Positions 3,216-14,377 of a stretch of 37,524 nucleotides of DNA are shown piece by piece (position 1 is the first letter of the stretch; each line of letters starts with the position of its first letter). The stretch lies in the IMG/VR virus record IMGVR_UViG_2522125086_000001. One strand, given 5' to 3'. Under the pieces are notes generated by a model that was not told where the DNA came from, did not search any database, and was given only the letters and a program-made list of their open reading frames with translations. Position numbers and translations under genes: made by a program. This DNA comes from an uncultured virus (IMG/VR IMGVR_UViG_2522125086_000001) (Duplodnaviria; Heunggongvirae; Uroviricota; Caudoviricetes).

Positions 3216-3899
3216 ATGAAGATCGATTTTAACCTCAAGGGCGCAGAGCGCAAGGAGCTGGTCAAGGCTATCTCAAGGATTACCGGAATCAAGGCTGAAT
3301 ACCAGGGCATGCCGACCACCAATTTTGTGATTGGAGACTTCACGGTAACCGCTGAAGGAGCTCTGGTTTACGATGACAAGATTGATGCCGGGGAGCTTTT
3401 AAACGAACTTGCCGAGGCAGGCTTTGAAGGAACCGCCGACAAGTCCGAAGACAAAGAGATTAAAGTTCCAGAACCGAATATCCTCACCATTGAAATGCCA
3501 GCCGACAAGGTAAACACCGGAAACCTGCAGAAGCTTCTTGATGCCAAGGGAGCGCTCATCCGTAAGGCACTCGGAATTGACAACCTGGCCTTTGAAATTC
3601 ATGAGGACAGGGTTTCCTTCCCGTGGTTCATTGATCCAGCTCCTGACCATACCATGGCCTACACCCAGTTCATTGCCGCCATCTGCAAAATGAGCACCGA
3701 GCAGAAACGAGTCACGGCAAAGGTCAGGGAAGTAAACAACGAGAAGTACGCTTTCAGATGTTTTCTGCTCCGACTAGGCTTTATCGGGGAGGAGTTCAAA
3801 CAGAGCCGCAAAATTCTGCTTTCCAACCTTGACGGCAGTTCAGCCTTCAAGACGGTGAAGGAAGAGCCAAAGGAGGTTCACGATGAAGTTTCCGAGTAG
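3216..3899 (+). CDS. Phage 'virulence-related' protein of unknown function
   Basis: GGAGA RBS; GAERKELVKAIS N-terminus and NEKYAFRCFLLRLGFIG C-terminus typical of this prophage family. Confidence 0.7.
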   Translation: MKIDFNLKGAERKELVKAISRITGIKAEYQGMPTTNFVIGDFTVTAEGALVYDDKIDAGELLNELAEAGFEGTADKSEDKEIKVPEPNILTIEMPADKVNTGNLQKLLDAKGALIRKALGIDNLAFEIHEDRVSFPWFIDPAPDHTMAYTQFIAAICKMSTEQKRVTAKVREVNNEKYAFRCFLLRLGFIGEEFKQSRKILLSNLDGSSAFKTVKEEPKEVHDEVSE

Positions 3900-4028
3900 A
3901 GAAATTGTTGAGCACCTCCGCAGGGAATTTCCCAAGGGTACCGTAGTTGAACTGGTACACATGAATGACGAGCATGCACCTCCTCCGGGAACTCTCGGAA
4001 CCGTTATGCATGTCGACGATGTTGCAAC
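3883..4028 (+). pseudogene. DUF4314-family gene, 5' part (interrupted by RIT-1)
   Basis: MKFPSREIVEHLRREFPKGTVVELVHMNDEHAPPPGTLGTVMHVDDVAT; continues in frame after the insertion. Confidence 0.8.
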
Positions 4029-4175
4029 TTATGGATAGCTGAATATTATGGAAAGTAAAACTGCGCAACCCTCTATTTTACTGGAAATATTCTTAAATTA
4101 TCAGACTGTTTTTCTTTCCATAATCTCCTATAATTTATGGTAGCAAATAGCTATCATAGATCAGGAGGTATCCAA

Positions 4176-5399
4176 ATGGACGCTTATGCTGTTAATTTAC
4201 CCATGGCCGATTTAATTACCAAATTAGATGAACATTTGGTAAATCTCGGATACACTGCCAACACGCTTCGACATCTCAGGCAGGCATGGAGAGCACTAAA
4301 AAAACTGGCATTGAAAGAAGGAGAAACATATTTCTCAAAAGAACTGGGTTTCAGACTTCTGCGCGAACATTATGACATTGATCCGTATGGATCGAACTAC
4401 AAGAGCTTCAAGTCGGTTACAAGACGGGCTGTAATGCTTTTGCTTGAATATCAGATATCAGGGACAATCGCCAAGCGCCAGCCAAAAGGTGAATATGAAA
4501 TTCCCGCGGGATTCAATGATGTGGGGAACAAATTTATGGAATCATTGATTGAGACCAATCTTGCTCCTGGAACACTTTACAATTACAAGATGCATCTATT
4601 TAGAGCGACAACTTTTTTTGTGAACCATGGAGTTTCTGATTTCAAAGCACTCAATAATGACATTATAAACATATACCTGAAAACACTCGCAGGGCTTTCC
4701 AAATCGTATATTGCAGGTATCACACGCGCTTTATCAAAGTTCCTCAACTTTGCCAACAAGCACGGATATACTGAAAAGGCGTTCGTTCTCCCGGAGATAA
4801 CTGTCTACAAAGATCGGCGCGTCCCGGAATACTATACAGCCGATGAGGTTTCTAAAATTCTCTCAAACATAGACAGGGGCAATGCGCTGGGAAAGCGCAA
4901 TTATGCGATGGTTCTGCTAGGTGCAAGATACGGGCTTCGTATCAGCGATATCGTATCCCTTAAGCTCAGCGAACTTGACTTTGAAAACAACCGCATCAGC
5001 ATAACACAGCAGAAAACCGGCAAGCCCCTGACGCTGGACATACTGCCTGATGTCGGATGGGCACTGATCGATTACCTTAAAAACGGGAGACCGGAAGTGG
5101 AATGTGACAGCGTTTTCCTGTGCCATACGCATCCGTACAAGGCGTTTGCGAGGGGGGAGACAATGCAGCATATGCTTAGGCAGTATGCGCTCTCGGCGGG
5201 CGTATGGAAGGCGGGAACCGAAAAGCGGTGCAGCTTCCATATGCTGAGATACAGCCTTGCCAGCGACCTTATCCAGCAAGGTGTCTCGCTGACTACTATC
5301 TCCGGCATACTTGGACATTCTGAGCTGAACGTGACAACGCTTTATGCCCAGCTCGACGTTCCGCAGCTGAAAGCCTGTGCTTTGGAGGTGCCGGTATGA
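4176..5399 (+). CDS. Tyrosine recombinase RitA-like
   Basis: AGGAGG RBS; catalytic YGLRISD, KTG, HMLRYS, LGH, Y. Confidence 0.9.
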   Translation: MDAYAVNLPMADLITKLDEHLVNLGYTANTLRHLRQAWRALKKLALKEGETYFSKELGFRLLREHYDIDPYGSNYKSFKSVTRRAVMLLLEYQISGTIAKRQPKGEYEIPAGFNDVGNKFMESLIETNLAPGTLYNYKMHLFRATTFFVNHGVSDFKALNNDIINIYLKTLAGLSKSYIAGITRALSKFLNFANKHGYTEKAFVLPEITVYKDRRVPEYYTADEVSKILSNIDRGNALGKRNYAMVLLGARYGLRISDIVSLKLSELDFENNRISITQQKTGKPLTLDILPDVGWALIDYLKNGRPEVECDSVFLCHTHPYKAFARGETMQHMLRQYALSAGVWKAGTEKRCSFHMLRYSLASDLIQQGVSLTTISGILGHSELNVTTLYAQLDVPQLKACALEVPV

Positions 5400-6394
5400 T
5401 GCCCCACAAACCTGTATATGAATTCAATAGTGTGTTTGCACCTTCGATTCGTGAGTATCTTGCAATAAAGGAAGCTCTTGGGGAGAAGGTAACACTCCCT
5501 GGAAACACGCTCCGTCAGTTTGACCGGTATTGCTTATCCATAGGCCTCGAAGACGCAGCCCTGACTACAGAACTTGCAGAAAACTGGCTGCTCACAAAAG
5601 CTGGGGAAAAACCGGAAACAAGGGCAAGCCGGATATCAGTGTTGTGGTGCTTTGCTCGGCATTTTTCAGCCAATGGCGGGAAAGTCACATGGCGGCCAAC
5701 TCCTGGGTATGCGGGGCGACAGAAAAGATACGTTCCCTATATCTACACGAGGGGAGAAGTAAAAAATATCTTTGCTGCCGCCGACTCTATGCCTGAGAGT
5801 TACGGGAAATCCCGTTTCAGTGCTGTTTTTCCGGCAGTCATCAGGACTCTCTACGGATGCGGTCTTCGCATTGCGGAAGCGCTTGCCCTTCGGGTGAAAG
5901 ATGTCGATCTTGAAAACGGCTTCATTTTTGTCCATGCGGGCAAGTTCGGCAAAGACAGAAAGATTCCAGTTTCTGACTCGCTGCTGCAGTACCTGAAGGG
6001 CTACTACAAGGACAATGCGAACTTCATCGGCGTTGCTGCCGATGGATGGTTTTTCCCAAACGCAAAAGGTGAATGCTACTCCCAGCGTACAGTGTATGAC
6101 AAGTTCCGCCAGATCCTTTGGATTGCGGGGATCACACACCAGGGGAAGGGAAGAGGACCGAGGGTACATGACCTCCGGCACACATTTGCAGTGCATGCCC
6201 TTCAGCAGAATGTCGAACAGGGGAAGGATATCTATACATCCCTGACGGGGCTTATGGTTTACCTTGGACACGGAAAGATTACCTCGACCGAATACTATCT
6301 GCGTTTGACAGCAGAGGTCTTTCCGGATTTTCTGGAACGTGCCGATAAAGTTTGTGCCAGGGCTATTCCGGAGGTTGTGTGTTATGAAGAATAG
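5396..6394 (+). CDS. Tyrosine recombinase RitB-like
   Basis: GCGLRIAE, KFGK, HDLRHTFA, YLGH, YY; ATGA overlap with the previous gene. Confidence 0.9.
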   Translation: MMPHKPVYEFNSVFAPSIREYLAIKEALGEKVTLPGNTLRQFDRYCLSIGLEDAALTTELAENWLLTKAGEKPETRASRISVLWCFARHFSANGGKVTWRPTPGYAGRQKRYVPYIYTRGEVKNIFAAADSMPESYGKSRFSAVFPAVIRTLYGCGLRIAEALALRVKDVDLENGFIFVHAGKFGKDRKIPVSDSLLQYLKGYYKDNANFIGVAADGWFFPNAKGECYSQRTVYDKFRQILWIAGITHQGKGRGPRVHDLRHTFAVHALQQNVEQGKDIYTSLTGLMVYLGHGKITSTEYYLRLTAEVFPDFLERADKVCARAIPEVVCYEE

Positions 6395-7418
6395 AGAAAC
6401 TTCTTTTTCTTATATCACCACAAGGTTTTTCCAGGTGTATCTTCCGGGAGAACGCGGGTACTCAGAAGCCACCATTGCATCGTACCTGGACACGTTCAAG
6501 CAACTGCTTGTTTATTGCAAAGAAACTCTTGGTAAATCCCCGGATAAGCTTGTCGTTTCCGACGTATCCAAGGATGTAGTGCTCGGCTTTCTTAAGAAGC
6601 TTGAGGACGAAGGAAAATCCGTATCCACAAGGAACCAGCGCCTTGCCGCTATAAAGTGTTTTTTCAGATATATCGGATACTCTTTTCCCGAGTACCTTGA
6701 CACGTCCAGCATGGTTGTCGGAATCAAGATGAAGAAACAATCTGAAGCGGTTGTCAATTACATGAGCGTTGATGGTGTCTCCTGCGTCCTTAACCAGCCG
6801 GATATGAAGCGCAAGTCCGGTTACAGGGATGCCCTCATGCTCACAATCCTTTATGATAGCGCTGCCCGCGTTACCGAGGTCACAAAGATCAGGATCGGTG
6901 ACATTCGGACGGAACACCCTGCCACCATTGTGCTTCACGGAAAAGGCGCAAAGGACAGAATTGTGCCGCTGTCCAGCAAAACGGCAGATCTGATTGCGTC
7001 TTACCTGCTACAGACAGGTCTGAACAGCGTTGAAAACAAGGACAAGCTTCTTTTTACCAATCGCACAGGCAAGCAGCTGACCAGGGCTGGCGTGGCCTAC
7101 ATACTCAAAAAATATGTGGAAGCAGCAAGGGCAGAACACCCGGAACTAATTCCTGATAAGTTTTCGCCCCATTGTATGAGGCATTCAAAGGCAATGCATC
7201 TGCTTCAGGCCGGGGTTGCGATAATATACATCCGTGACTTCCTTGGCCATGAAAGCGTGAAAACAACTGAGGTATATGCGAAAGCAGATGGAAAAAGCAA
7301 GCGTGAGGCGCTTGATGCAGCTTATTCCGCCGCCATTGAAGATTCCAATGTCCCGAAAACCTCTTGGAATGATGACAATGACCTCATGGCATTCTTGAAA
7401 AAGCTGTGTGAAAGCTAA
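6384..7418 (+). CDS. Tyrosine recombinase RitC-like
   Basis: STRNQRLAAIK SAM-like domain; AARVTE, GKGAKDR, HCMRHS, LGH, VY; GGAGG RBS before MKNRE. Confidence 0.9.
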   Translation: MKNRETSFSYITTRFFQVYLPGERGYSEATIASYLDTFKQLLVYCKETLGKSPDKLVVSDVSKDVVLGFLKKLEDEGKSVSTRNQRLAAIKCFFRYIGYSFPEYLDTSSMVVGIKMKKQSEAVVNYMSVDGVSCVLNQPDMKRKSGYRDALMLTILYDSAARVTEVTKIRIGDIRTEHPATIVLHGKGAKDRIVPLSSKTADLIASYLLQTGLNSVENKDKLLFTNRTGKQLTRAGVAYILKKYVEAARAEHPELIPDKFSPHCMRHSKAMHLLQAGVAIIYIRDFLGHESVKTTEVYAKADGKSKREALDAAYSAAIEDSNVPKTSWNDDNDLMAFLKKLCES

Positions 7419-7507
7419 AGTTTTATGGAAAGCATTATCGAAAAGACACCAGTGTTTCTGTGTATCTGACGATAATACTTTCCATAATATTCATCTATCC
7501 ATAACTC

Positions 7508-7533
7508 CCGTTATGAGAAGCTTTTCATAACGG
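7508..7533. repeat. Near-perfect 26-bp palindrome at the RIT-1 end
   Basis: CCGTTATGAGAAGCTTTTCATAACGG. Confidence 0.9.
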
Positions 7534-7536
7534 AAC

Positions 7537-7621
7537 GATTCATGTGTGCTGGCAGAACGGCTCAAGTCTAGGTTTAGCTTTCGGAGAAGACGTATGTAGA
7601 ATCGTCAAAAATAGCAAGTAA
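7537..7621 (+). pseudogene. DUF4314-family gene, 3' part
   Basis: IHVCWQNGSSLGLAFGEDVCRIVKNSK*; W-x-NGS-L...GED motif. Confidence 0.8.
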
Positions 7622-7666
7622 ATCAATGATTTATATACAAAATAAATATCGAAATATAATCGATTA

Positions 7667-7700
7667 TTAAGTTGCTATAGTGTGCCTTCAGAGTGAATAT
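7667..7700 (+). promoter_or_regulatory. Repeated 34-bp promoter-like motif, copy 2
   Basis: TTAAGTTGCTA-N12-AGAGTGAATAT upstream of the amidoligase. Confidence 0.6.
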
Positions 7701-7746
7701 ACACACAACAAAACGAACAAACATTAACCAAAAAGAAGGCACAAAA

Positions 7747-8106
7747 ATGAAAGAAAAAACCTTAAAGCAGATTGAAAACCTTAAGAACCAGACCATCGGA
7801 GTTGAAGTTGAGATGAACTGCATTACCCGCAAGGATGCCGCAAGAATTGCCGCAGAGTTTTTCGGAACCCACAGGGTTGAAGATACCGCCTACCGCAACG
7901 GCTACTGCACGGTCAGCGCATGGGACGCGCAGGGACGCGAATGGAAGTTCCAGAAGGACGTAAGCATCGCCGGTGACGATGCCCACAAGTGCGAAATGGT
8001 TACCCCGATCCTGAACTACAGCGACATCGAAAGCCTGCAGGAGCTTTGCAGAAGACTGCGCAAGGCCGGAGCAAAGAGTGACGCCACCCGGGGATGTGGA
8101 ATCCAT
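7747..8106 (+). pseudogene. Amidoligase (COOH-NH2 ligase type 2), 5' part, interrupted by RIT-2
   Basis: TIGVEVEM, WKFQKDVSI, CEMVTPIL, CGIH; joins in frame with 13793. Confidence 0.85.
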
Positions 8107-8189
8107 TATGCATCGCCCGGAGTTATAGGAAAGATTCTGGAAAAACTGCCATTTTACTAGCATATTTTCTTAGAATCTTTCCATAATAT

Positions 8190-9212
8190 TCACTCACAGT
8201 ACTTATTGAGCCACTCAAGAAGTGAAGGGTTATTACGGTATTCAATTGGCGTTGTGTCAGGTATTTTTATTTGTTCATTTGCGGCCTTAAGTGCATCCTG
8301 ACGCTGTTTGCTATCGATACGGGCATATATTTCAGTCGTTTTTATGTGTTCATGCCCAAGCTGATCGCGGATGTAAATAAGATTCTGTCCTGCCTGTAGC
8401 ATCATCATGGCTTTTGTATGTCTCAAACAATGCGGCGTGAGCTTGGCTGGGAAATCCATGGGTGATTCATCGTGGATTTCGGACGCATATTTTTGGAGAA
8501 TATACGTTATGCCTGCTCTTGTGAACTGTTTTCCACTCCTGTTTAGGAAAAGAAAACGACCTGCCTGTGTTGGATTCTGAAGCCCTTCATTATCGAAATA
8601 CAAGCTTAGTAGTTTTGTCGTATTGGTGCTGACCGGGACGTATCGATTTTTGTTCCCTTTCCCATGCACAAGGATCTGGGATGGTGTTCCGAGTCTGATG
8701 TCACATACTCGGATACCTATCAGCTCGCTTACCCTGACACCTGTATCCGCAAGGATGGTCAGTATAAGCAGATCCTTGAAACCATATTTGTTGCTGCTGT
8801 CCGGCCTTGCCAAGAGCGTTCCCAACTGTTCAGCGTTCAGGTATTGGATGACAGGCGTTTCCTTTTTCTTGGATGGGATCGCAAGTATCTGCTGCATGTT
8901 ATAAAGATTCTGAGGGGAATCAGATTGAACATACCTGCAGAACGACTTGATCGCGGCAAGTCGTTGGTTTCTTGTTGAAACGGAGCAACCTTTTTCTTCA
9001 AGTGATGACAGGAATGCCTTGATGTTGTCAGACGTAAATTCGTCCATTGTTACCTTATTGATAGGCTTCTTTACTCTGCTGTGGAAAAACGGTACCAGGA
9101 GCTGAAATGTGTAATTGTAGGAAATAAATGTGTTCTCAGACAAACCTCGCTCGCCTCCAAGATAGGTAGTCAGAAAACTTGAAATATAGTACTGCAAGTT
9201 TTTATCTTTCAT
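8190..9212 (-). CDS. Tyrosine recombinase RitC-like
   Basis: STRNQRLAAIK, TGVRVSE, GKGNKNR, HCLRHT, LGH, IY. Confidence 0.9.
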   Translation of the reverse strand: MKDKNLQYYISSFLTTYLGGERGLSENTFISYNYTFQLLVPFFHSRVKKPINKVTMDEFTSDNIKAFLSSLEEKGCSVSTRNQRLAAIKSFCRYVQSDSPQNLYNMQQILAIPSKKKETPVIQYLNAEQLGTLLARPDSSNKYGFKDLLILTILADTGVRVSELIGIRVCDIRLGTPSQILVHGKGNKNRYVPVSTNTTKLLSLYFDNEGLQNPTQAGRFLFLNRSGKQFTRAGITYILQKYASEIHDESPMDFPAKLTPHCLRHTKAMMMLQAGQNLIYIRDQLGHEHIKTTEIYARIDSKQRQDALKAANEQIKIPDTTPIEYRNNPSLLEWLNKYCE

Positions 9213-10182
9213 AGCGTTCTACCTCAGGTATGATTTTTTCCATGATGCCGTCCATGGTTTTTACAACGAACGGGTATGCTTCTGCTGTCAGTCTCAGATA
9301 TCTTTCTGTTGCCGACAGATTCCTGTGTCCAAGGTAGGTGCACAAAAGCGGAAGGAAGGCATTGGGATCTGTTCCGGCTTCAACCGCGGCCTGCAGAGAA
9401 TGAACTGCAAAGGTATGGCGAATATCATGCAGTCGAGGGCCTTTACCTCGTCCCTTGTGATGTATACCGGCCTTCCACAGCGTATTTCGAAACCAGTCAT
9501 AGGCTGTGTTTCTGCGGAATGGCATCTGTTCGTTATGCTGGAAAACAGGTTCTTCGTCCGAATACCCTTGCGAGGATAGGTAATCAGCCATGCGTTTCGA
9601 AAGGCTTGGCGACATCGGTACCAGCCTGGAGTTGTCATTCTTTGCTTCACGAACCAGCAGTACCTTCTGACTCAGAGAGATATCTCCAACCGTAAGTGAT
9701 AAAGCCTCGTTGATTCGCAACCCCGTCCCATAAAGGAGACGAAACAGTAAAGGTGCACAACGAACATAGGATGTACTCTGGTCTTGCCAATTGTCAGCGG
9801 CATCAAATATGCGCCGTATTTCATCGTGTGTAAAAATATATGGAGTGAACCCACTGCCATGCAGTTTTTCTCTTGCGTTTGGAGGTGAGGGAAGTACATC
9901 GTCACCTTGAGACAGCAGATAGGAGTAAAACTGGCGATATACACTATTTCTGGTCGAAAATGTCTTGTCAGACTCAGAACTGCGTTTACTAAGCCATCTG
10001 TATACTGTCTCTTCCGGGTGATCTGCAGGGGTAACACCATGTGTCTGGAAGTATCGATCCAGCCTCTGCAATTCTTTTACCTCTCCGTTATATTTATAGC
10101 CTTCAAGCCTTTTGGACTCGACAAACTCATAAAGGCGTGAAGCGTACCCACTTGAGAAGAAGGGTTTGTTGTATGGCACCAT
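9202..10182 (-). CDS. Tyrosine recombinase RitB-like
   Basis: GTGLRINE, KGPRLHDIRHTFA, YLGH, RY. Confidence 0.9.
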   Translation of the reverse strand: MVPYNKPFFSSGYASRLYEFVESKRLEGYKYNGEVKELQRLDRYFQTHGVTPADHPEETVYRWLSKRSSESDKTFSTRNSVYRQFYSYLLSQGDDVLPSPPNAREKLHGSGFTPYIFTHDEIRRIFDAADNWQDQSTSYVRCAPLLFRLLYGTGLRINEALSLTVGDISLSQKVLLVREAKNDNSRLVPMSPSLSKRMADYLSSQGYSDEEPVFQHNEQMPFRRNTAYDWFRNTLWKAGIHHKGRGKGPRLHDIRHTFAVHSLQAAVEAGTDPNAFLPLLCTYLGHRNLSATERYLRLTAEAYPFVVKTMDGIMEKIIPEVERYER

Positions 10183-10386
10183 CAGTCCACCTCCAACGCG
10201 CAGTTCCGGAGCTGACTAATTCCGATCTTAGTATAGATCATCGTAGTATTAGAAGATCTGTGTCCGAGAACTTCTGACACCGTGGATATTGGCACCCCCT
10301 GGTTCAGCATGTTTCCGGCAATACTGTGCCGAAGAGAATGCAGCCCGCGTTTCCTATGGTGAAAATCGGTAAATCCGGAAAGCTTC
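10182..10386 (-). pseudogene. RitA-like recombinase, 3' fragment (after IS21)
   Basis: Reads SGFTDFHHRKRGLHSLRHSIAGNMLNQGVPISTVSEVLGHRSSNTTMIYTKIGISQLRNCALEVD*; in frame with the 5' part when IS21 is removed. Confidence 0.88.
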
Positions 10387-10443
10387 TGTAGAACGATCGA
10401 AAAAGTTGACCACTAAAACGATCGGAAGTTGACCACTCCGATT

Positions 10444-11220
10444 TTAACTTAAACTTTCATTTTTTGCCAATAAATTTGCCTTCTTGGCAGCGAGCAATCT
10501 GTAACTGTCGCCATTGATTGTAAGCACACTACAATGATGAAGCAGTCTGTCTAAAATAGCAGTGGCGGCAGTTGTATCACCAAGTATCAGTCCCCAATCA
10601 CTGACAGGTCTGTTGCTGGTTATAACAGTACTTTTGGATTCATATCTTCTGCTTATCAGCTGAAACAAAAGATGTGAGCCATTTGCACTGAAGGGACAGT
10701 ATCCTAATTCATCAATGATGAGGACTTTAACCTTAGCAAGTTTCTGCATTTTTTGTTCAAGCTTTCCCATTTCATGGGCTTCGGAGAGTTCTTTGATAAG
10801 AGCTTCTGCCGTTTTAAAAAGTACTGAGTATCCTTGTTCTACGGCTAGCAGACCGAATCCAATGGCCAGGTGTGTTTTGCCTACTCCTGGAGGCCCAAGA
10901 AAGAGAATATTAGAGCCACTGCCAGCCCAGGACAGCGTTTTAAGTTCTCTGATGACAGCCGTATCGATACAAGGCTGCACCGAGAAGTCAAACTCCTCAA
11001 GAGTGCATTTGCGAGGGAAATGGGCTGCCATAATCCCAATCCTTATTCTGTTTTCCTCTCGACGACTAATTTCACGACTAAAGACAAACTGCAATATTTC
11101 TCTGGGATTCATTCTGCTGTTTGTAGTTTCACTGATAATTTCCTCAATGTGATCTCTGCAGAAAGTCAGATTCAGCCTGTCAGCCATAGCAACAAGATTG
11201 TTATCAGATGCCATTACCAT
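10444..11220 (-). CDS. istB: IS21 helper ATPase
   Basis: Walker A GPPGVGKT, Walker B LIIDELGY, ITSN, AILDRLLHH. Confidence 0.95.
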   Translation of the reverse strand: MVMASDNNLVAMADRLNLTFCRDHIEEIISETTNSRMNPREILQFVFSREISRREENRIRIGIMAAHFPRKCTLEEFDFSVQPCIDTAVIRELKTLSWAGSGSNILFLGPPGVGKTHLAIGFGLLAVEQGYSVLFKTAEALIKELSEAHEMGKLEQKMQKLAKVKVLIIDELGYCPFSANGSHLLFQLISRRYESKSTVITSNRPVSDWGLILGDTTAATAILDRLLHHCSVLTINGDSYRLLAAKKANLLAKNESLS

Positions 11221-12542
11221 GCGCCTCCAGTAACTTTTGCATACTCATCGAGTGAACGTGACAGGCTGTTCTGCCCCCACGTTTCATAATCGGGACTAAC
11301 GTCATTAAAAATTTTAATGGTTGATTTTTCCTGCAATTTTGCAGTATAAAAGGAAGTGGCCTTATCTATTCTGATAACTTTATTATCATCATCGTGGAAG
11401 ATGATTTCTGTGTCTGTTATCTGAATAAATACGCTTTGATTGGAGTACTGCTCCGGTAGTTTATACAATCTGTTCTCGACGCGGATAAGGCCACACTTGT
11501 CTGCCTTTCTGGTTTCCTCACGTATGTTTGTAAAAAATACTCTGTCAACAGTCCTGAGTTCAGATCGTTCCTTTTGTGTAAATCTTTCTGCCGGGGTTTC
11601 AGCTTGTATGCCGGAGGTATGAACCAGTGAAAGTTTCCTTACGTCTGAGTATTTCACCAACCATAAATCTATCCACTTCTGTAAGTCCTCAAGAGAATCA
11701 AAGTTTCTGCCTGGTAGTGCATTTTCCTTGAAATACCTTACCATACGTTCACATTTACCTTTAGAGCGGGGTTTATATGGCGTACACGCGACAGGCTTAA
11801 CATTCCAATAATGGCAGAATGCCGTATACCTTTCATTAAATTTGAGCTCACTGCCGTTATGTACTGTAACCAGACATTTTGTATTATCTGAGACTATTGC
11901 CAGAGGAACTCCTCCAAAATGTCTAAAAGCATTCTCAATACCATTAAGCCATGCTTCAGTATTTTCTGCCGTAAACGCCTTTACGTAAATTCTTCTCGAA
12001 TAACCGAGAACACTAACAAAAAAGTGAATCCTGACATTACTCCCGCCTATCATCACATCCTGTTCTCCAAAATCTATCTGCAGGTGATCACCAGGTTGGG
12101 TTTCATAGCGACAGGGGATTGATTCGCCACGATTCTTCAGTTCCTTTCTGAACTGCTTGCAGAAAATCTGTAACCCTCGTAAATTCGCACTGCCATCATA
12201 CGATTCCTTAAGTTTTCTCAGCAGAGGTACACAGTGTCCATTCATCTCGAGAAACAGCTCTTTAATTGTTTCTCTGTTGATCTTCAGATAGTTATTAAAA
12301 CTGTCCTGCACACGTACCTTTGGTTTTTGAATACCATTCATGTATTTACGAACAGATTGCCTTGAAATTCCCAATTTTCTGGCTATATCCCTGATAGACT
12401 TTCCTTGTTTAGAAAGTTCATGGATCTGATTTTGAAATATTGAATCAAACATTCTGGAATACCCATTTTCTTTTATACGATATTCCGATATTTTATGTTT
12501 TTTAGATCTTTTCATGACCACTCCATTATCTATTTGTTTCAT
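11214..12542 (-). CDS. istA: IS21 transposase (start uncertain)
   Basis: HTH SIRDIARKLGISRQSV; YETQPGDHLQIDFG, LGYSRR, SDN, KGKCER. Confidence 0.93.
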   Translation of the reverse strand: MKQIDNGVVMKRSKKHKISEYRIKENGYSRMFDSIFQNQIHELSKQGKSIRDIARKLGISRQSVRKYMNGIQKPKVRVQDSFNNYLKINRETIKELFLEMNGHCVPLLRKLKESYDGSANLRGLQIFCKQFRKELKNRGESIPCRYETQPGDHLQIDFGEQDVMIGGSNVRIHFFVSVLGYSRRIYVKAFTAENTEAWLNGIENAFRHFGGVPLAIVSDNTKCLVTVHNGSELKFNERYTAFCHYWNVKPVACTPYKPRSKGKCERMVRYFKENALPGRNFDSLEDLQKWIDLWLVKYSDVRKLSLVHTSGIQAETPAERFTQKERSELRTVDRVFFTNIREETRKADKCGLIRVENRLYKLPEQYSNQSVFIQITDTEIIFHDDDNKVIRIDKATSFYTAKLQEKSTIKIFNDVSPDYETWGQNSLSRSLDEYAKVTGGAW

Positions 12543-12601
12543 AATTTATAGGTGGTCAACTTTTATTCGTTTAGGTGGTCAACTTTTGCGATCGTTTAAC
12601 A

Positions 12602-13606
12602 AAGCTTCATATATTTATTGATGATGTTGTGAAGGTTGTTATCCTGCCCAAAAGCCTCGTAAGGGGCATTGTGCCGGACAAAAATGTTCCGGCAAGAAGT
12701 TTCTGGTCGGCCATTCTTGAAGTAATCAATAAGAGCAGCCGCAACATCATCTAACAATGGAAAGGTCATCACTGTACCGGTCTTCCCCTGACAGAATGTG
12801 AAAGATGACTTATTCCAGTCAATGTTGGACAGACAGAGATCACGGATATCTCCGACGCGCATGCCGTACCTTACAGCAAACAGTAGAATGGCGTAATCCC
12901 GTTTCCCTATGGGGCTTTCCCGATCAACATTGGAAAGTAGCGTTGTTATCTCCTCTGTCGTGTAAAATGATGGGATGCGCCCTTTATGTGTTCCCTTAAC
13001 ATTTGGCACAAAAACAGAATTATCAACAATGGTGTATTCGTGCTTGTATAGGAAATCGAAAAATTTCCTTAAAACATAGGCATCATAGGTCTGTGTTGTG
13101 CGGCAGACATTGGCACGGGTTTTCCAATATTCAAGGATAGTATCCTTGTTAAGTTTTGCATAATTGGTGAAGCCATGTCTTTCAAGGAACCACAGAAAGG
13201 ATTCCATACGGGATCTTATCTGTCTGTGTGAAGTCCTTGTCATTGTTTTCGAGACAAAATCCATGAATTCCCCAATAGCTGGCTGGAATGTCTGGCTGAA
13301 ATAATGGTCTTTACATGATCTCCGTCTGTAAATAGTGCCATTGGACTGATATTCCAGAAGTACAGTGATGGCCCGACGACAGTGGCGGTAATCACTCTTT
13401 GCGCGGTCTTTGGAAGGTTCATCGTAAGTTTGGTAACAATACCGTTCCCAACATTCCCTGTTGAATTTAGGTATTCTTTCCTGTTCCATGAATTGAGATA
13501 AACGGTTCCAAAAACGGTGGTATGCTGCAATTGTATGCCTGTCATACTGCAGTGTGCGGAGCAGTTGATCGACTGCCCCTGTAAGCTCCTCAAATGATGC
13601 ATTCAT
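12602..13606 (-). pseudogene. RitA-like recombinase, 5' fragment (interrupted by IS21)
   Basis: AGGAG RBS before MNASF; GKRDYAILL, YGMRVGD, KTG; lacks the HxxRH/LGH/Y residues, which lie at 10182-10386. Confidence 0.88.
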
Positions 13607-13758
13607 ACTGATGACATCTCCTACAAATATATCCAAGATACTGCCTGTGAAATAATTATAGGAAATTATGAAAAGTTTTTATGTATGATGATTGGTAAAA
13701 ATCCTTGTAAAATCAGAGGTTATACATAAATCTTTCCTATAACTCCGGGCGATGCATA

Positions 13759-13792
13759 ATGAACTTTATGTAAAGCTTTACATAAAGTTCAT
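13759..13792. repeat. Perfect 34-bp palindrome at the RIT-2 end
   Basis: ATGAACTTTATGTAAAGCTTTACATAAAGTTCAT. Confidence 0.95.
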
Positions 13793-14377
13793 ATTCACCT
13801 TGGACAGGGAGATCACACACCGCAGACCCTGCGCAACCTTGCCAACATCATGGCAAGCCACGAGAGCCTCTTAGCCGAAGCCCTTAAGCTTGACCAGCAC
13901 CGCATGGCAAGATACTGCAGAACGGTTGATCCAAGATTCCTTAAGGAACTCAACAAGAAAAAGCCGCAGACCATGGACGAGCTCGAGGACATCTGGTACA
14001 TCAGCCAGGGCGAGAACTACGGCAGAGAACAGCATTACAACGGATCAAGATACAGAATGCTGAACTACCACGCCACCTTTTCAAAGCACACCATCGAGTT
14101 CAGACTTTTTGAATTCGAAGCACCAGCCAACGGAAAGCAGAACGGCATTCACGCAGGACGCCTTAAGGCTTACATTCAGCTTTGCCTTGCCTTAAGCGAG
14201 ATGGCAAAGGAAGTCAGAACCGCAAGCCCTAAGCCGCAGCAGCATGAGAATCCGAAGTTCGCGATGAGAACATGGCTTTTAAGACTCGGGTTCATCGGTG
14301 AAGAGTTCGCAACAGCCCGCGAGATTTTAACCCGCAACCTTAGCGGAAACGCAGCCTTCCGGTTCGGAAGAGCCTAA
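13793..14377 (+). pseudogene. Amidoligase, 3' part
   Basis: IHLGQGDHTPQTLRNLANIMASHE...RYRMLN...TIEFRLF; the rejoined gene is about 314 aa. Confidence 0.85.

Follow-up and report, generated by a model that had tools for sequence, protein, structure and literature searches.

RIT elements end in a palindrome between two 6-bp spacers, and near-identical copies carry it on opposite sides of the recombinase trio

The window analysed here, a stretch of 37,524 nt from an uncultured virus (IMGVR_UViG_2522125086_000001, Caudoviricetes), contains two RIT elements between positions 3,900 and 14,377, each with three tyrosine recombinase genes in the order ritA-ritB-ritC. Open reading frame (ORF) listing, Pfam matches and pairwise blastp place RIT-1 on the plus strand and RIT-2 on the minus strand. 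In both elements, one of the two terminal inverted repeats (IRs) is followed by a 6-bp spacer, a 20-nt palindrome and a second 6-bp spacer, and near-identical copies found elsewhere carry this palindrome at the opposite end of the trio. The reading we favour, with a probability of about two in three, is that the joined ends of the element would form a dyad with two mirror-image cores, either of which could be used at integration.

Direct reading of the ends bore out the architecture described in the original prediction, a first look at the same DNA (IR, 6 bp, palindrome, 6 bp). RIT-1 (4029-7536, 3508 bp) is intact. Its IRs, ritA-proximal at 4029..4057 with two direct CTnnnCATAA-type motifs and ritC-proximal at 7476..7504, are 29 nt long and complementary at 28 of 29 positions. 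Beyond the ritC-proximal IR lie the inner spacer CTCCCG (7505..7510), the palindrome TTATGAGAAGCTTTTCATAA (7511..7530, 20 nt, centred on AAGCTT, with one G/T mismatch) and the outer spacer CGGAAC (7531..7536); the palindrome consists of two inverted copies of the IR motif joined at AGCT. RIT-2 occupies 8106-13791, 5686 bp including an insertion sequence (IS) of the IS21 family that interrupts ritA; a RIT-2-type copy without the IS, locus L152, measures 3464 bp. The ritC-proximal IR is at 8106..8136 and the ritA-proximal IR at 13729..13759, followed by the inner spacer TGAACT (13760..13765), the palindrome TTATGTAAAGCTTTACATAA (13766..13785, 20 nt, perfect, also centred on AAGCTT) and the outer spacer AGTTCA (13786..13791). 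Together with its spacers, this palindrome forms a perfect 34-nt palindrome. For IRs starting with TTATG, the predicted length of 29 bp holds in RIT-1, but the 32 bp given for RIT-2 does not: the repeats there are perfect over 33 nt (8104-8136 and 13729-13761), or 31 nt counted from TTATG. The RIT-2 spacers are exact reverse complements of each other and those of RIT-1 differ at two of six positions, both as first noticed. Because blastp pairs the genes of the two elements in the order 1-1, 2-2 and 3-3, RIT-1 has its palindrome downstream of ritC and RIT-2 upstream of ritA, in agreement with the earlier description.

Uninterrupted targets allowed the boundaries to be fixed to the base. The 567 bp between RIT-1 and RIT-2 were used to search 98 genomes of the same family, which yielded six loci with both target genes uninterrupted (in L010, site 2 only) and a single 6-bp overlap. 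The nearest is L008, with flanks 95-98% identical, where site 1 reads ..ATTGCAAC directly followed by GATTCAT.. and site 2 reads ..GGAATCCA directly followed by TATTCAC... One of the six belongs to the genome that carries the window: it is a second copy of the host element's DUF4314-amidoligase segment (L016/L146, contig C2, about 615-619 kb), 82-91% identical and empty at both RIT sites. The intact targets encode a 76-aa DUF4314 protein and an Amidoligase_2 protein. In contigs from four gut metagenome runs, a precise empty joint was found for RIT-1 in two (4025>7534, a 3508-bp skip) and for RIT-2 in all four (8103>13790, a 5686-bp skip), each with three ambiguous bases. The RIT-1 target is split into a 5' part (3883..4028, plus strand) and a 3' part (7537..7621, plus strand); its uninterrupted homologue (L008:728-958, 76 aa) matches DUF4314 with an E value of 5e-29. 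The RIT-2 target is likewise divided into 7693..8105 (plus strand; Amidoligase_2, E 3e-20) and 13792..14377 (plus strand), and its uninterrupted counterpart (L008:3-656) matches with E 2e-42. One copy of the target's 6 bp remains at the left junction of each insertion: TGCAAC at 4023-4028 and AATCCA at 8100-8105, both identified from the L008 empty alleles. The palindromes were missing from all six loci and from the metagenome joints, which rules out that they are part of the target, and because the empty alleles lack both palindromes and outer spacers, these are part of the elements. The palindrome is thus outside the IRs, as originally proposed, but it and the outer 6 bp are inside the element. 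Each element spans from the tip of one IR to 6 bp past the palindrome.

The same architecture is widespread. We scanned both strands of genome_contigs (596 Gb) for the pattern CATAA-N6-TTATG-N3-AGCT-N3-CATAA, with 19 fixed bases, and found at least 122 matching stretches versus about 4 expected by our estimate, a number that chance does not explain. The matches listed span Firmicutes, Bacteroidota, Proteobacteria, Acidobacteriota, Actinomycetota, Planctomycetota, Elusimicrobiota and others, and a narrower pattern returned 43 metagenome stretches. Genome and metagenome scans together gave 159 distinct ends among the matches listed, on which all counts of ends and elements below rest. Their consensus is aCTtt.CATAAt.....aCT.tgCATAA-N6-TTATGtaaAGCTttaCATAA-N6. 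Each IR holds two direct motifs of about 10 nt, CTnnnCATAA, spaced 17 bp apart, and the palindrome arms are the same motif inverted, giving six motif copies per element. One triplet in the arms is variable, and it covaries with that of the IR motif: 1.87 mismatches were observed versus 2.73 in shuffled pairings, beyond all 500 shuffles. Both ends were available for 54 elements: 16 miniatures, 312-478 bp long and without genes, and the others, which measure 3.2-3.7 kb. The miniatures (L025, L030, L045, L048, L053, L055, L056, L062, L082, L090, L095, L102 and four metagenome loci) keep the full arrangement, IR...IR-6-palindrome-6, and from their sequence look like RIT derivatives comparable to miniature inverted-repeat transposable elements.

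The spacers behave as an overlap region. Of the 159 ends, 85 have an outer spacer that mirrors the inner one exactly, as its reverse complement; 20 deviate from this by one mismatch and 54 by two or more. Shuffled spacer pairs gave 2.4 exact mirrors (in an earlier set of 125 ends). Of the single-palindrome elements, 46 could be read at both ends. In 25 of these, the left-junction 6 bp are identical to the outer spacer, and in 10 of the 46 the outer spacer equals the left-junction 6 bp yet differs from the mirror of the inner spacer. The other 21 show 43 mismatches, all at positions 1-4 (15, 8, 6 and 14, respectively) and none at positions 5-6, which adjoin the IR tip or the right target arm. 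Both elements of the window belong to this mismatched class: CGGAAC differs from the resident TGCAAC at positions 1 and 3, and AGTTCA from AATCCA at positions 2 and 4. The idea that the spacers are coupling sequences carried from former targets is well supported here, since the 6 bp at the left junctions belong to the resident target and the outer spacers occur as other natural alleles at the same position. CGGAAC is the allele of L016, and AGTTCA that of five of the six empty loci. CGGGAG, the reverse complement of the RIT-1 inner spacer, is also a natural target allele (in L012), besides being the left-junction spacer of L189, a RIT-1-type copy described below. These data fit a 6-bp overlap in which two bases would have to be homologous, four would be free and the donor version would be carried along. 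In RIT-1, the outer spacer would then be the overlap of the core that was used and the inner spacer that of the unused core.

Copies of one element are not confined to one palindrome side, and the comparison with such copies largely supports the original interpretation. A copy of RIT-1 on the 3672-bp metagenome contig L189 matches it with 91% identity across 3491 bp and interrupts a distant DUF4314 gene at the corresponding codons. As in RIT-1, the palindrome is on the downstream side of the target, but here it neighbours the ritA-proximal IR and the trio points the other way. The spacers of RIT-1 recur with the inner one and the one at the junction having changed places, such that CTCCCG adjoins the ritC-proximal IR in both elements, internally in RIT-1 and at the junction in L189. 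Because RitC is identical over 339 aligned columns though the DNA is 91% identical, divergence is uneven and L189 may be a mosaic with respect to RIT-1. RIT-2 has a 99.3% identical counterpart in L152, which occupies a different amidoligase allele and has the palindrome beside the ritC-proximal IR and the trio inverted; identity drops to 95% and 84% in the two flanks, which marks L152 as an independent insertion. L163 and L174, at contig edges, have the same linkage as L152. Among the matches listed, 30 elements are full-length with a single palindrome, 10 of RIT-1 type and 20 of RIT-2 type. Orientation does not cluster on a RitC tree of 34 rows: its label requires 12 changes compared with a shuffled mean of 11.8, and three sister pairs are of opposite type.

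The polarity of the target, in turn, is fixed: all 28 ends that abut the reverse transcriptase '..PQG' codon run do so in the same polarity. Judged from flank translations, RIT families appear to target codon runs that encode conserved protein motifs of other mobile elements. Across the 159 ends, the runs identified were reverse transcriptase ..GTPQGG (28), IS66 transposase GRKNxLF (11), Mu/TniA-like transposase GK[VI]ERF (8), ParA-type Walker A GKTT (7) and IstB Walker A GKSH (2), and 103 ends had no target class. Right flanks with a target motif include L025, L047, L066, L028, L181, L046, L055, L079 and L076; Pfam confirms the target family in 10 of 11 such flanks, with no match for L026.

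How these observations could be joined is as follows. The ends of the element would be brought together as IR-6-palindrome-6-IR in a circular intermediate, producing a dyad of about 100 bp with six motif copies. This dyad would hold two classical cores, CATAA-N6-TTATG, back to back on either side of the palindrome, each with one further flanking motif. One core would recombine with a polar target, B-N6-B', cleavage presumably falling at the edges of N6; the last two bases of N6, beside the IR tip and B', would have to match the target and the first four would be free. Of these four bases, the version brought by the element would finish next to the palindrome and that of the target at the opposite junction, as coupling sequences. 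Either core would be usable, since each mirrors the other; the palindrome would always come to lie on the B' side with the trio in either orientation, which would explain why it follows ritC in RIT-1 and precedes ritA in RIT-2.

The alternative that survives best is that integration has a single mode and that the segment between the IRs flips afterwards in place, by recombination of the left-junction core with the inner core, which stand in inverted orientation. The products would be identical, with the palindrome fixed to the target and the trio inverted, and both cores are complete or near-complete sites. This predicts pairs of the same insertion with identical flanks in both orientations, and none was seen, in a sample small enough to make the argument weak. 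L152 and L174 have a flank in common and L163 a different one, all three in the same orientation, and the window copy, in the other orientation, is in a third allele. We consider inversion in place unlikely, and flipping at integration the better account.

It is very improbable that the palindrome arises instead from a hairpin at the end that is opened off-centre, or that it marks a telomere-resolvase-like site, with no circle junction involved. The exact mirroring of outer and inner spacers at 85 ends would be expected of such a fold-back, and the passages of Nielsen et al. 2017 (PMC5737581) on RIT DNA report its enrichment after exonuclease treatment with zero junction reads and propose hairpin molecules. 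The remaining 74 of 159 ends, however, are not exact mirrors; the 10 outer spacers that depart from the mirror while equalling the left-junction 6 bp follow the target; the left end has no half palindrome; and mismatches avoid positions 5-6, as expected of an overlap region. That the palindrome side is a fixed trait of lineages, left by an old rearrangement and uninformative about mechanism, could be entertained while RIT-1 and RIT-2, with proteins only 32-42% identical, or the one uniform clade of the RitC tree were considered, but it is hardly credible given copies 91% and 99% identical that differ in side (L189 and L152), which would have to be mis-assembled across IRs of 29-33 bp, and a tree with as many changes as its shuffled versions.

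Several observations weigh against the use of either core of a joined-end dyad. No circle junction or back-joint was present in the contigs of the four gut metagenome runs, although contigs cannot show rare forms, and the absence of junction reads in Nielsen et al. points the same way; a long perfect palindrome at the junction would be hard to sequence or map. In the Pseudomonadota clade, all seven single-palindrome rows are of RIT-2 type, and orientation is therefore not random everywhere. Palindromes at both ends were found in L039, L087, L147 and L150, which require secondary events, as does L111, where two palindromes flank 6 bp with no element between them in a reverse-transcriptase-type target. 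L147 lies between the downstream arms of two different ParA-type genes, and L150 between those of IS66-type transposase genes, facing outward in either case. L111 may be a footprint or a docking site, and the two-palindrome elements and L111 could result from recombination between copies of opposite type or from insertion at a solo palindrome. The only contig with IR-6-palindrome-6-IR, L170, may be a tandem or nested insertion. Finally, the model does not explain the need for three recombinases.

L170 was rejected as a circle junction, its right-hand copy being truncated with ritB fused to unrelated sequence. Three stretches of viral_contigs with the junction pattern were rejected as circles as well: in L191 and L192, the RIT abuts the end of a different element, and in L193, TTATG resembles ordinary flank. 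In the first two, the outer side of the RIT palindrome meets an IR-like end of a different RIT-type element, which may represent insertion into its end core. In run X2, the contig with the RIT-1 body ends exactly at both IR tips, which hints at more than one context and proves nothing. The two-palindrome loci are also listed as L147/L148 and L039/L040.

The joined-end dyad can be extended to the enzymes, although we put this forward tentatively and regard it as rather doubtful. There would be one dyad site with six identical motifs, forming two mirror-image sets of three, each bound by RitA, RitB and RitC; the doubled DNA-binding domain of RitA would span the two motifs of an IR. With its two halves equivalent, the element would be indifferent to orientation: every insertion would pick one of the two cores, record next to the palindrome as many as four bases from its past, and could leave behind palindrome-only docking sites to which further copies would be recruited. 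In its description of these enzymes, Smyshlyaev 2021 (PMC8138268) gives RitA two core-binding domains and RitC an extra C-terminal helix; matching the former to the paired IR motifs is speculation. In the proteins of the window, the Xer-like match of RitA begins only at about residue 131, which would leave room for a second N-terminal domain.

On their predicted proteins, both units are assigned to the RIT elements, with three Xer-like tyrosine recombinases, RitA, RitB and RitC. In RIT-1, ritA (4137..5399, plus strand, 420 aa) matches Phage_integrase with E 6e-27 and has the first gene of RIT-2 as its best match; it is followed by ritB (5396..6394, plus strand, 332 aa) and ritC (6339..7418, plus strand, 359 aa from a GTG, with the ATG at 6384 as the likelier start), both identified by Pfam, blastp and NCBIfam matches. 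RIT-2 encodes, all on the minus strand, ritC (8190..9212, 340 aa) and ritB (9202..10182, 326 aa), which overlap by 11 bp and were identified in the same way, and a ritA split by the IS into a 5' part (12596..13636, from Pfam and blastp) and a 3' remainder (10183..10386, from its translation). In both elements the three genes are adjacent on one strand with short overlaps, except for the split in ritA. Proteins 1, 2 and 3 of the two elements are 32, 36 and 42% identical, with blastp E values from 1e-62 to 1e-98. By eye, the translations of all three proteins contain the R..HxxR..Y catalytic residues, and there are full-length matches to Phage_integrase; in RitA of RIT-2, they are divided between the halves flanking the IS, the 3' remainder encoding HxxR..Y. 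The five intact proteins are Xer-like, with XerC, XerD and XerA as best NCBIfam matches, and their scores lie far under the curated cut-off (for example 184, and at best 188.6, versus 335 bits), which places them outside XerC and XerD proper. No fourth gene was found between the IRs in the ORF list or by Pfam. The gene set of Tn554/SE (a large and an ordinary recombinase plus a TnpC/Srap-type protein) was not recovered, the recombinases here having 326-420 aa.

RitC homologues were found in 629 plasmid records, mostly of alpha- and betaproteobacteria (Sinorhizobium, Sphingobium, Paraburkholderia, Ralstonia and others), the groups in which RIT elements were first described. The match in Dinoroseobacter shibae is the third gene of an annotated three-recombinase trio, with a TTATCCAAAG/CTTTGGATAA palindrome upstream of ritA; its second end could not be defined. 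As characterized by Van Houdt et al. 2012 (PMC3414803), RIT elements have the same A-B-C trio of Xer-like genes with short overlaps, a size of about 3.5 kb, IRs of about 30 bp and a nested position in mobile elements. The IRs and sizes found here (3508 bp for RIT-1 and 3464 bp for L152) agree with this, and there is no difference in family membership from known RIT elements. In its account of the ends, the same article describes an IR of 28-9 bp, an overlapping palindrome and variable ends, and judges these unconvincing as sites.

Within the genome that carries the window, each element is single-copy, with no second RIT-1 or RIT-2, and a DNA search of 401 genomes of the order, limited to the best two candidates per genome, recovered no more copies of either, matching the host segment alone. 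The IS in RIT-2 (10379..12600, minus strand, approximate bounds) was recognized by its rve and IstB_IS21 matches, its 50-nt multi-repeat IRs and an 8-bp duplication; it encodes istA (11214-12542) and istB (10444-11220). RIT-2 without it was found in one gut metagenome run, where a contig skips exactly 2222 bp with eight shared bases, and L152 also lacks it. Because its depth in gut metagenome contigs far exceeds that of RIT-2, this IS is common elsewhere.

Among known systems, Tn554, SE and GInt, as treated in the relevant part of a Mob DNA 2023 article (PMC10214605), resemble the RIT elements described here in having several tyrosine recombinases, target specificity, no ordinary duplication and 6 bp carried from a former site; they use one large and one ordinary recombinase with accessory proteins and show a strict strand bias. 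For RIT elements, a table of the same article gives 'not tested' under movement, under target specificity and under empty sites. Unlike these systems, the RIT elements have three Xer-like enzymes, symmetric ends and an end palindrome. IntDOT of CTnDOT and the Tn916 integrase tolerate heterology in the overlap, require homology only beside one cleavage site and carry non-identical hexamers between sites; arm-binding domains are present in these integrases, their att sites are asymmetric with a single core, and neither a trio nor a dyad is known for them. XerC/XerD acting at dif are simple recombinases whose site has inverted arms of about 11 bp around a 6-bp centre. RIT elements share such arms and centre, but carry their own sites, two back to back, and their proteins score far under the Xer family cut-offs. 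A literature search found no mechanistic paper on RIT elements; Ricker et al. 2013, outside the reach of that search, may bear on novelty. RIT elements themselves are known, and what appears to be added here, absent from the literature examined with Ricker 2013 aside, is the exact boundaries, the six-motif dyad, the 6-bp overlap rule, the variable palindrome side and the miniatures.

These results fix to the base the boundaries of a widespread family and place its crossover in an overlap of 6 bp, two of which would have to be homologous to the target, and near-identical copies differ in which of the mirror-image cores sits at the junction. How RIT elements move, and why they have three recombinases, become experiments on a defined site of about 100 bp, and the signature of 19 fixed bases lets annotators find RIT elements and their miniatures. 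Insertion into conserved codon runs of other mobile elements bears on the competition between such elements. If true, a six-motif dyad with mirror-image trios would mean that a tyrosine-recombinase transposon works by a new logic, and it would account for the presence of three recombinases.

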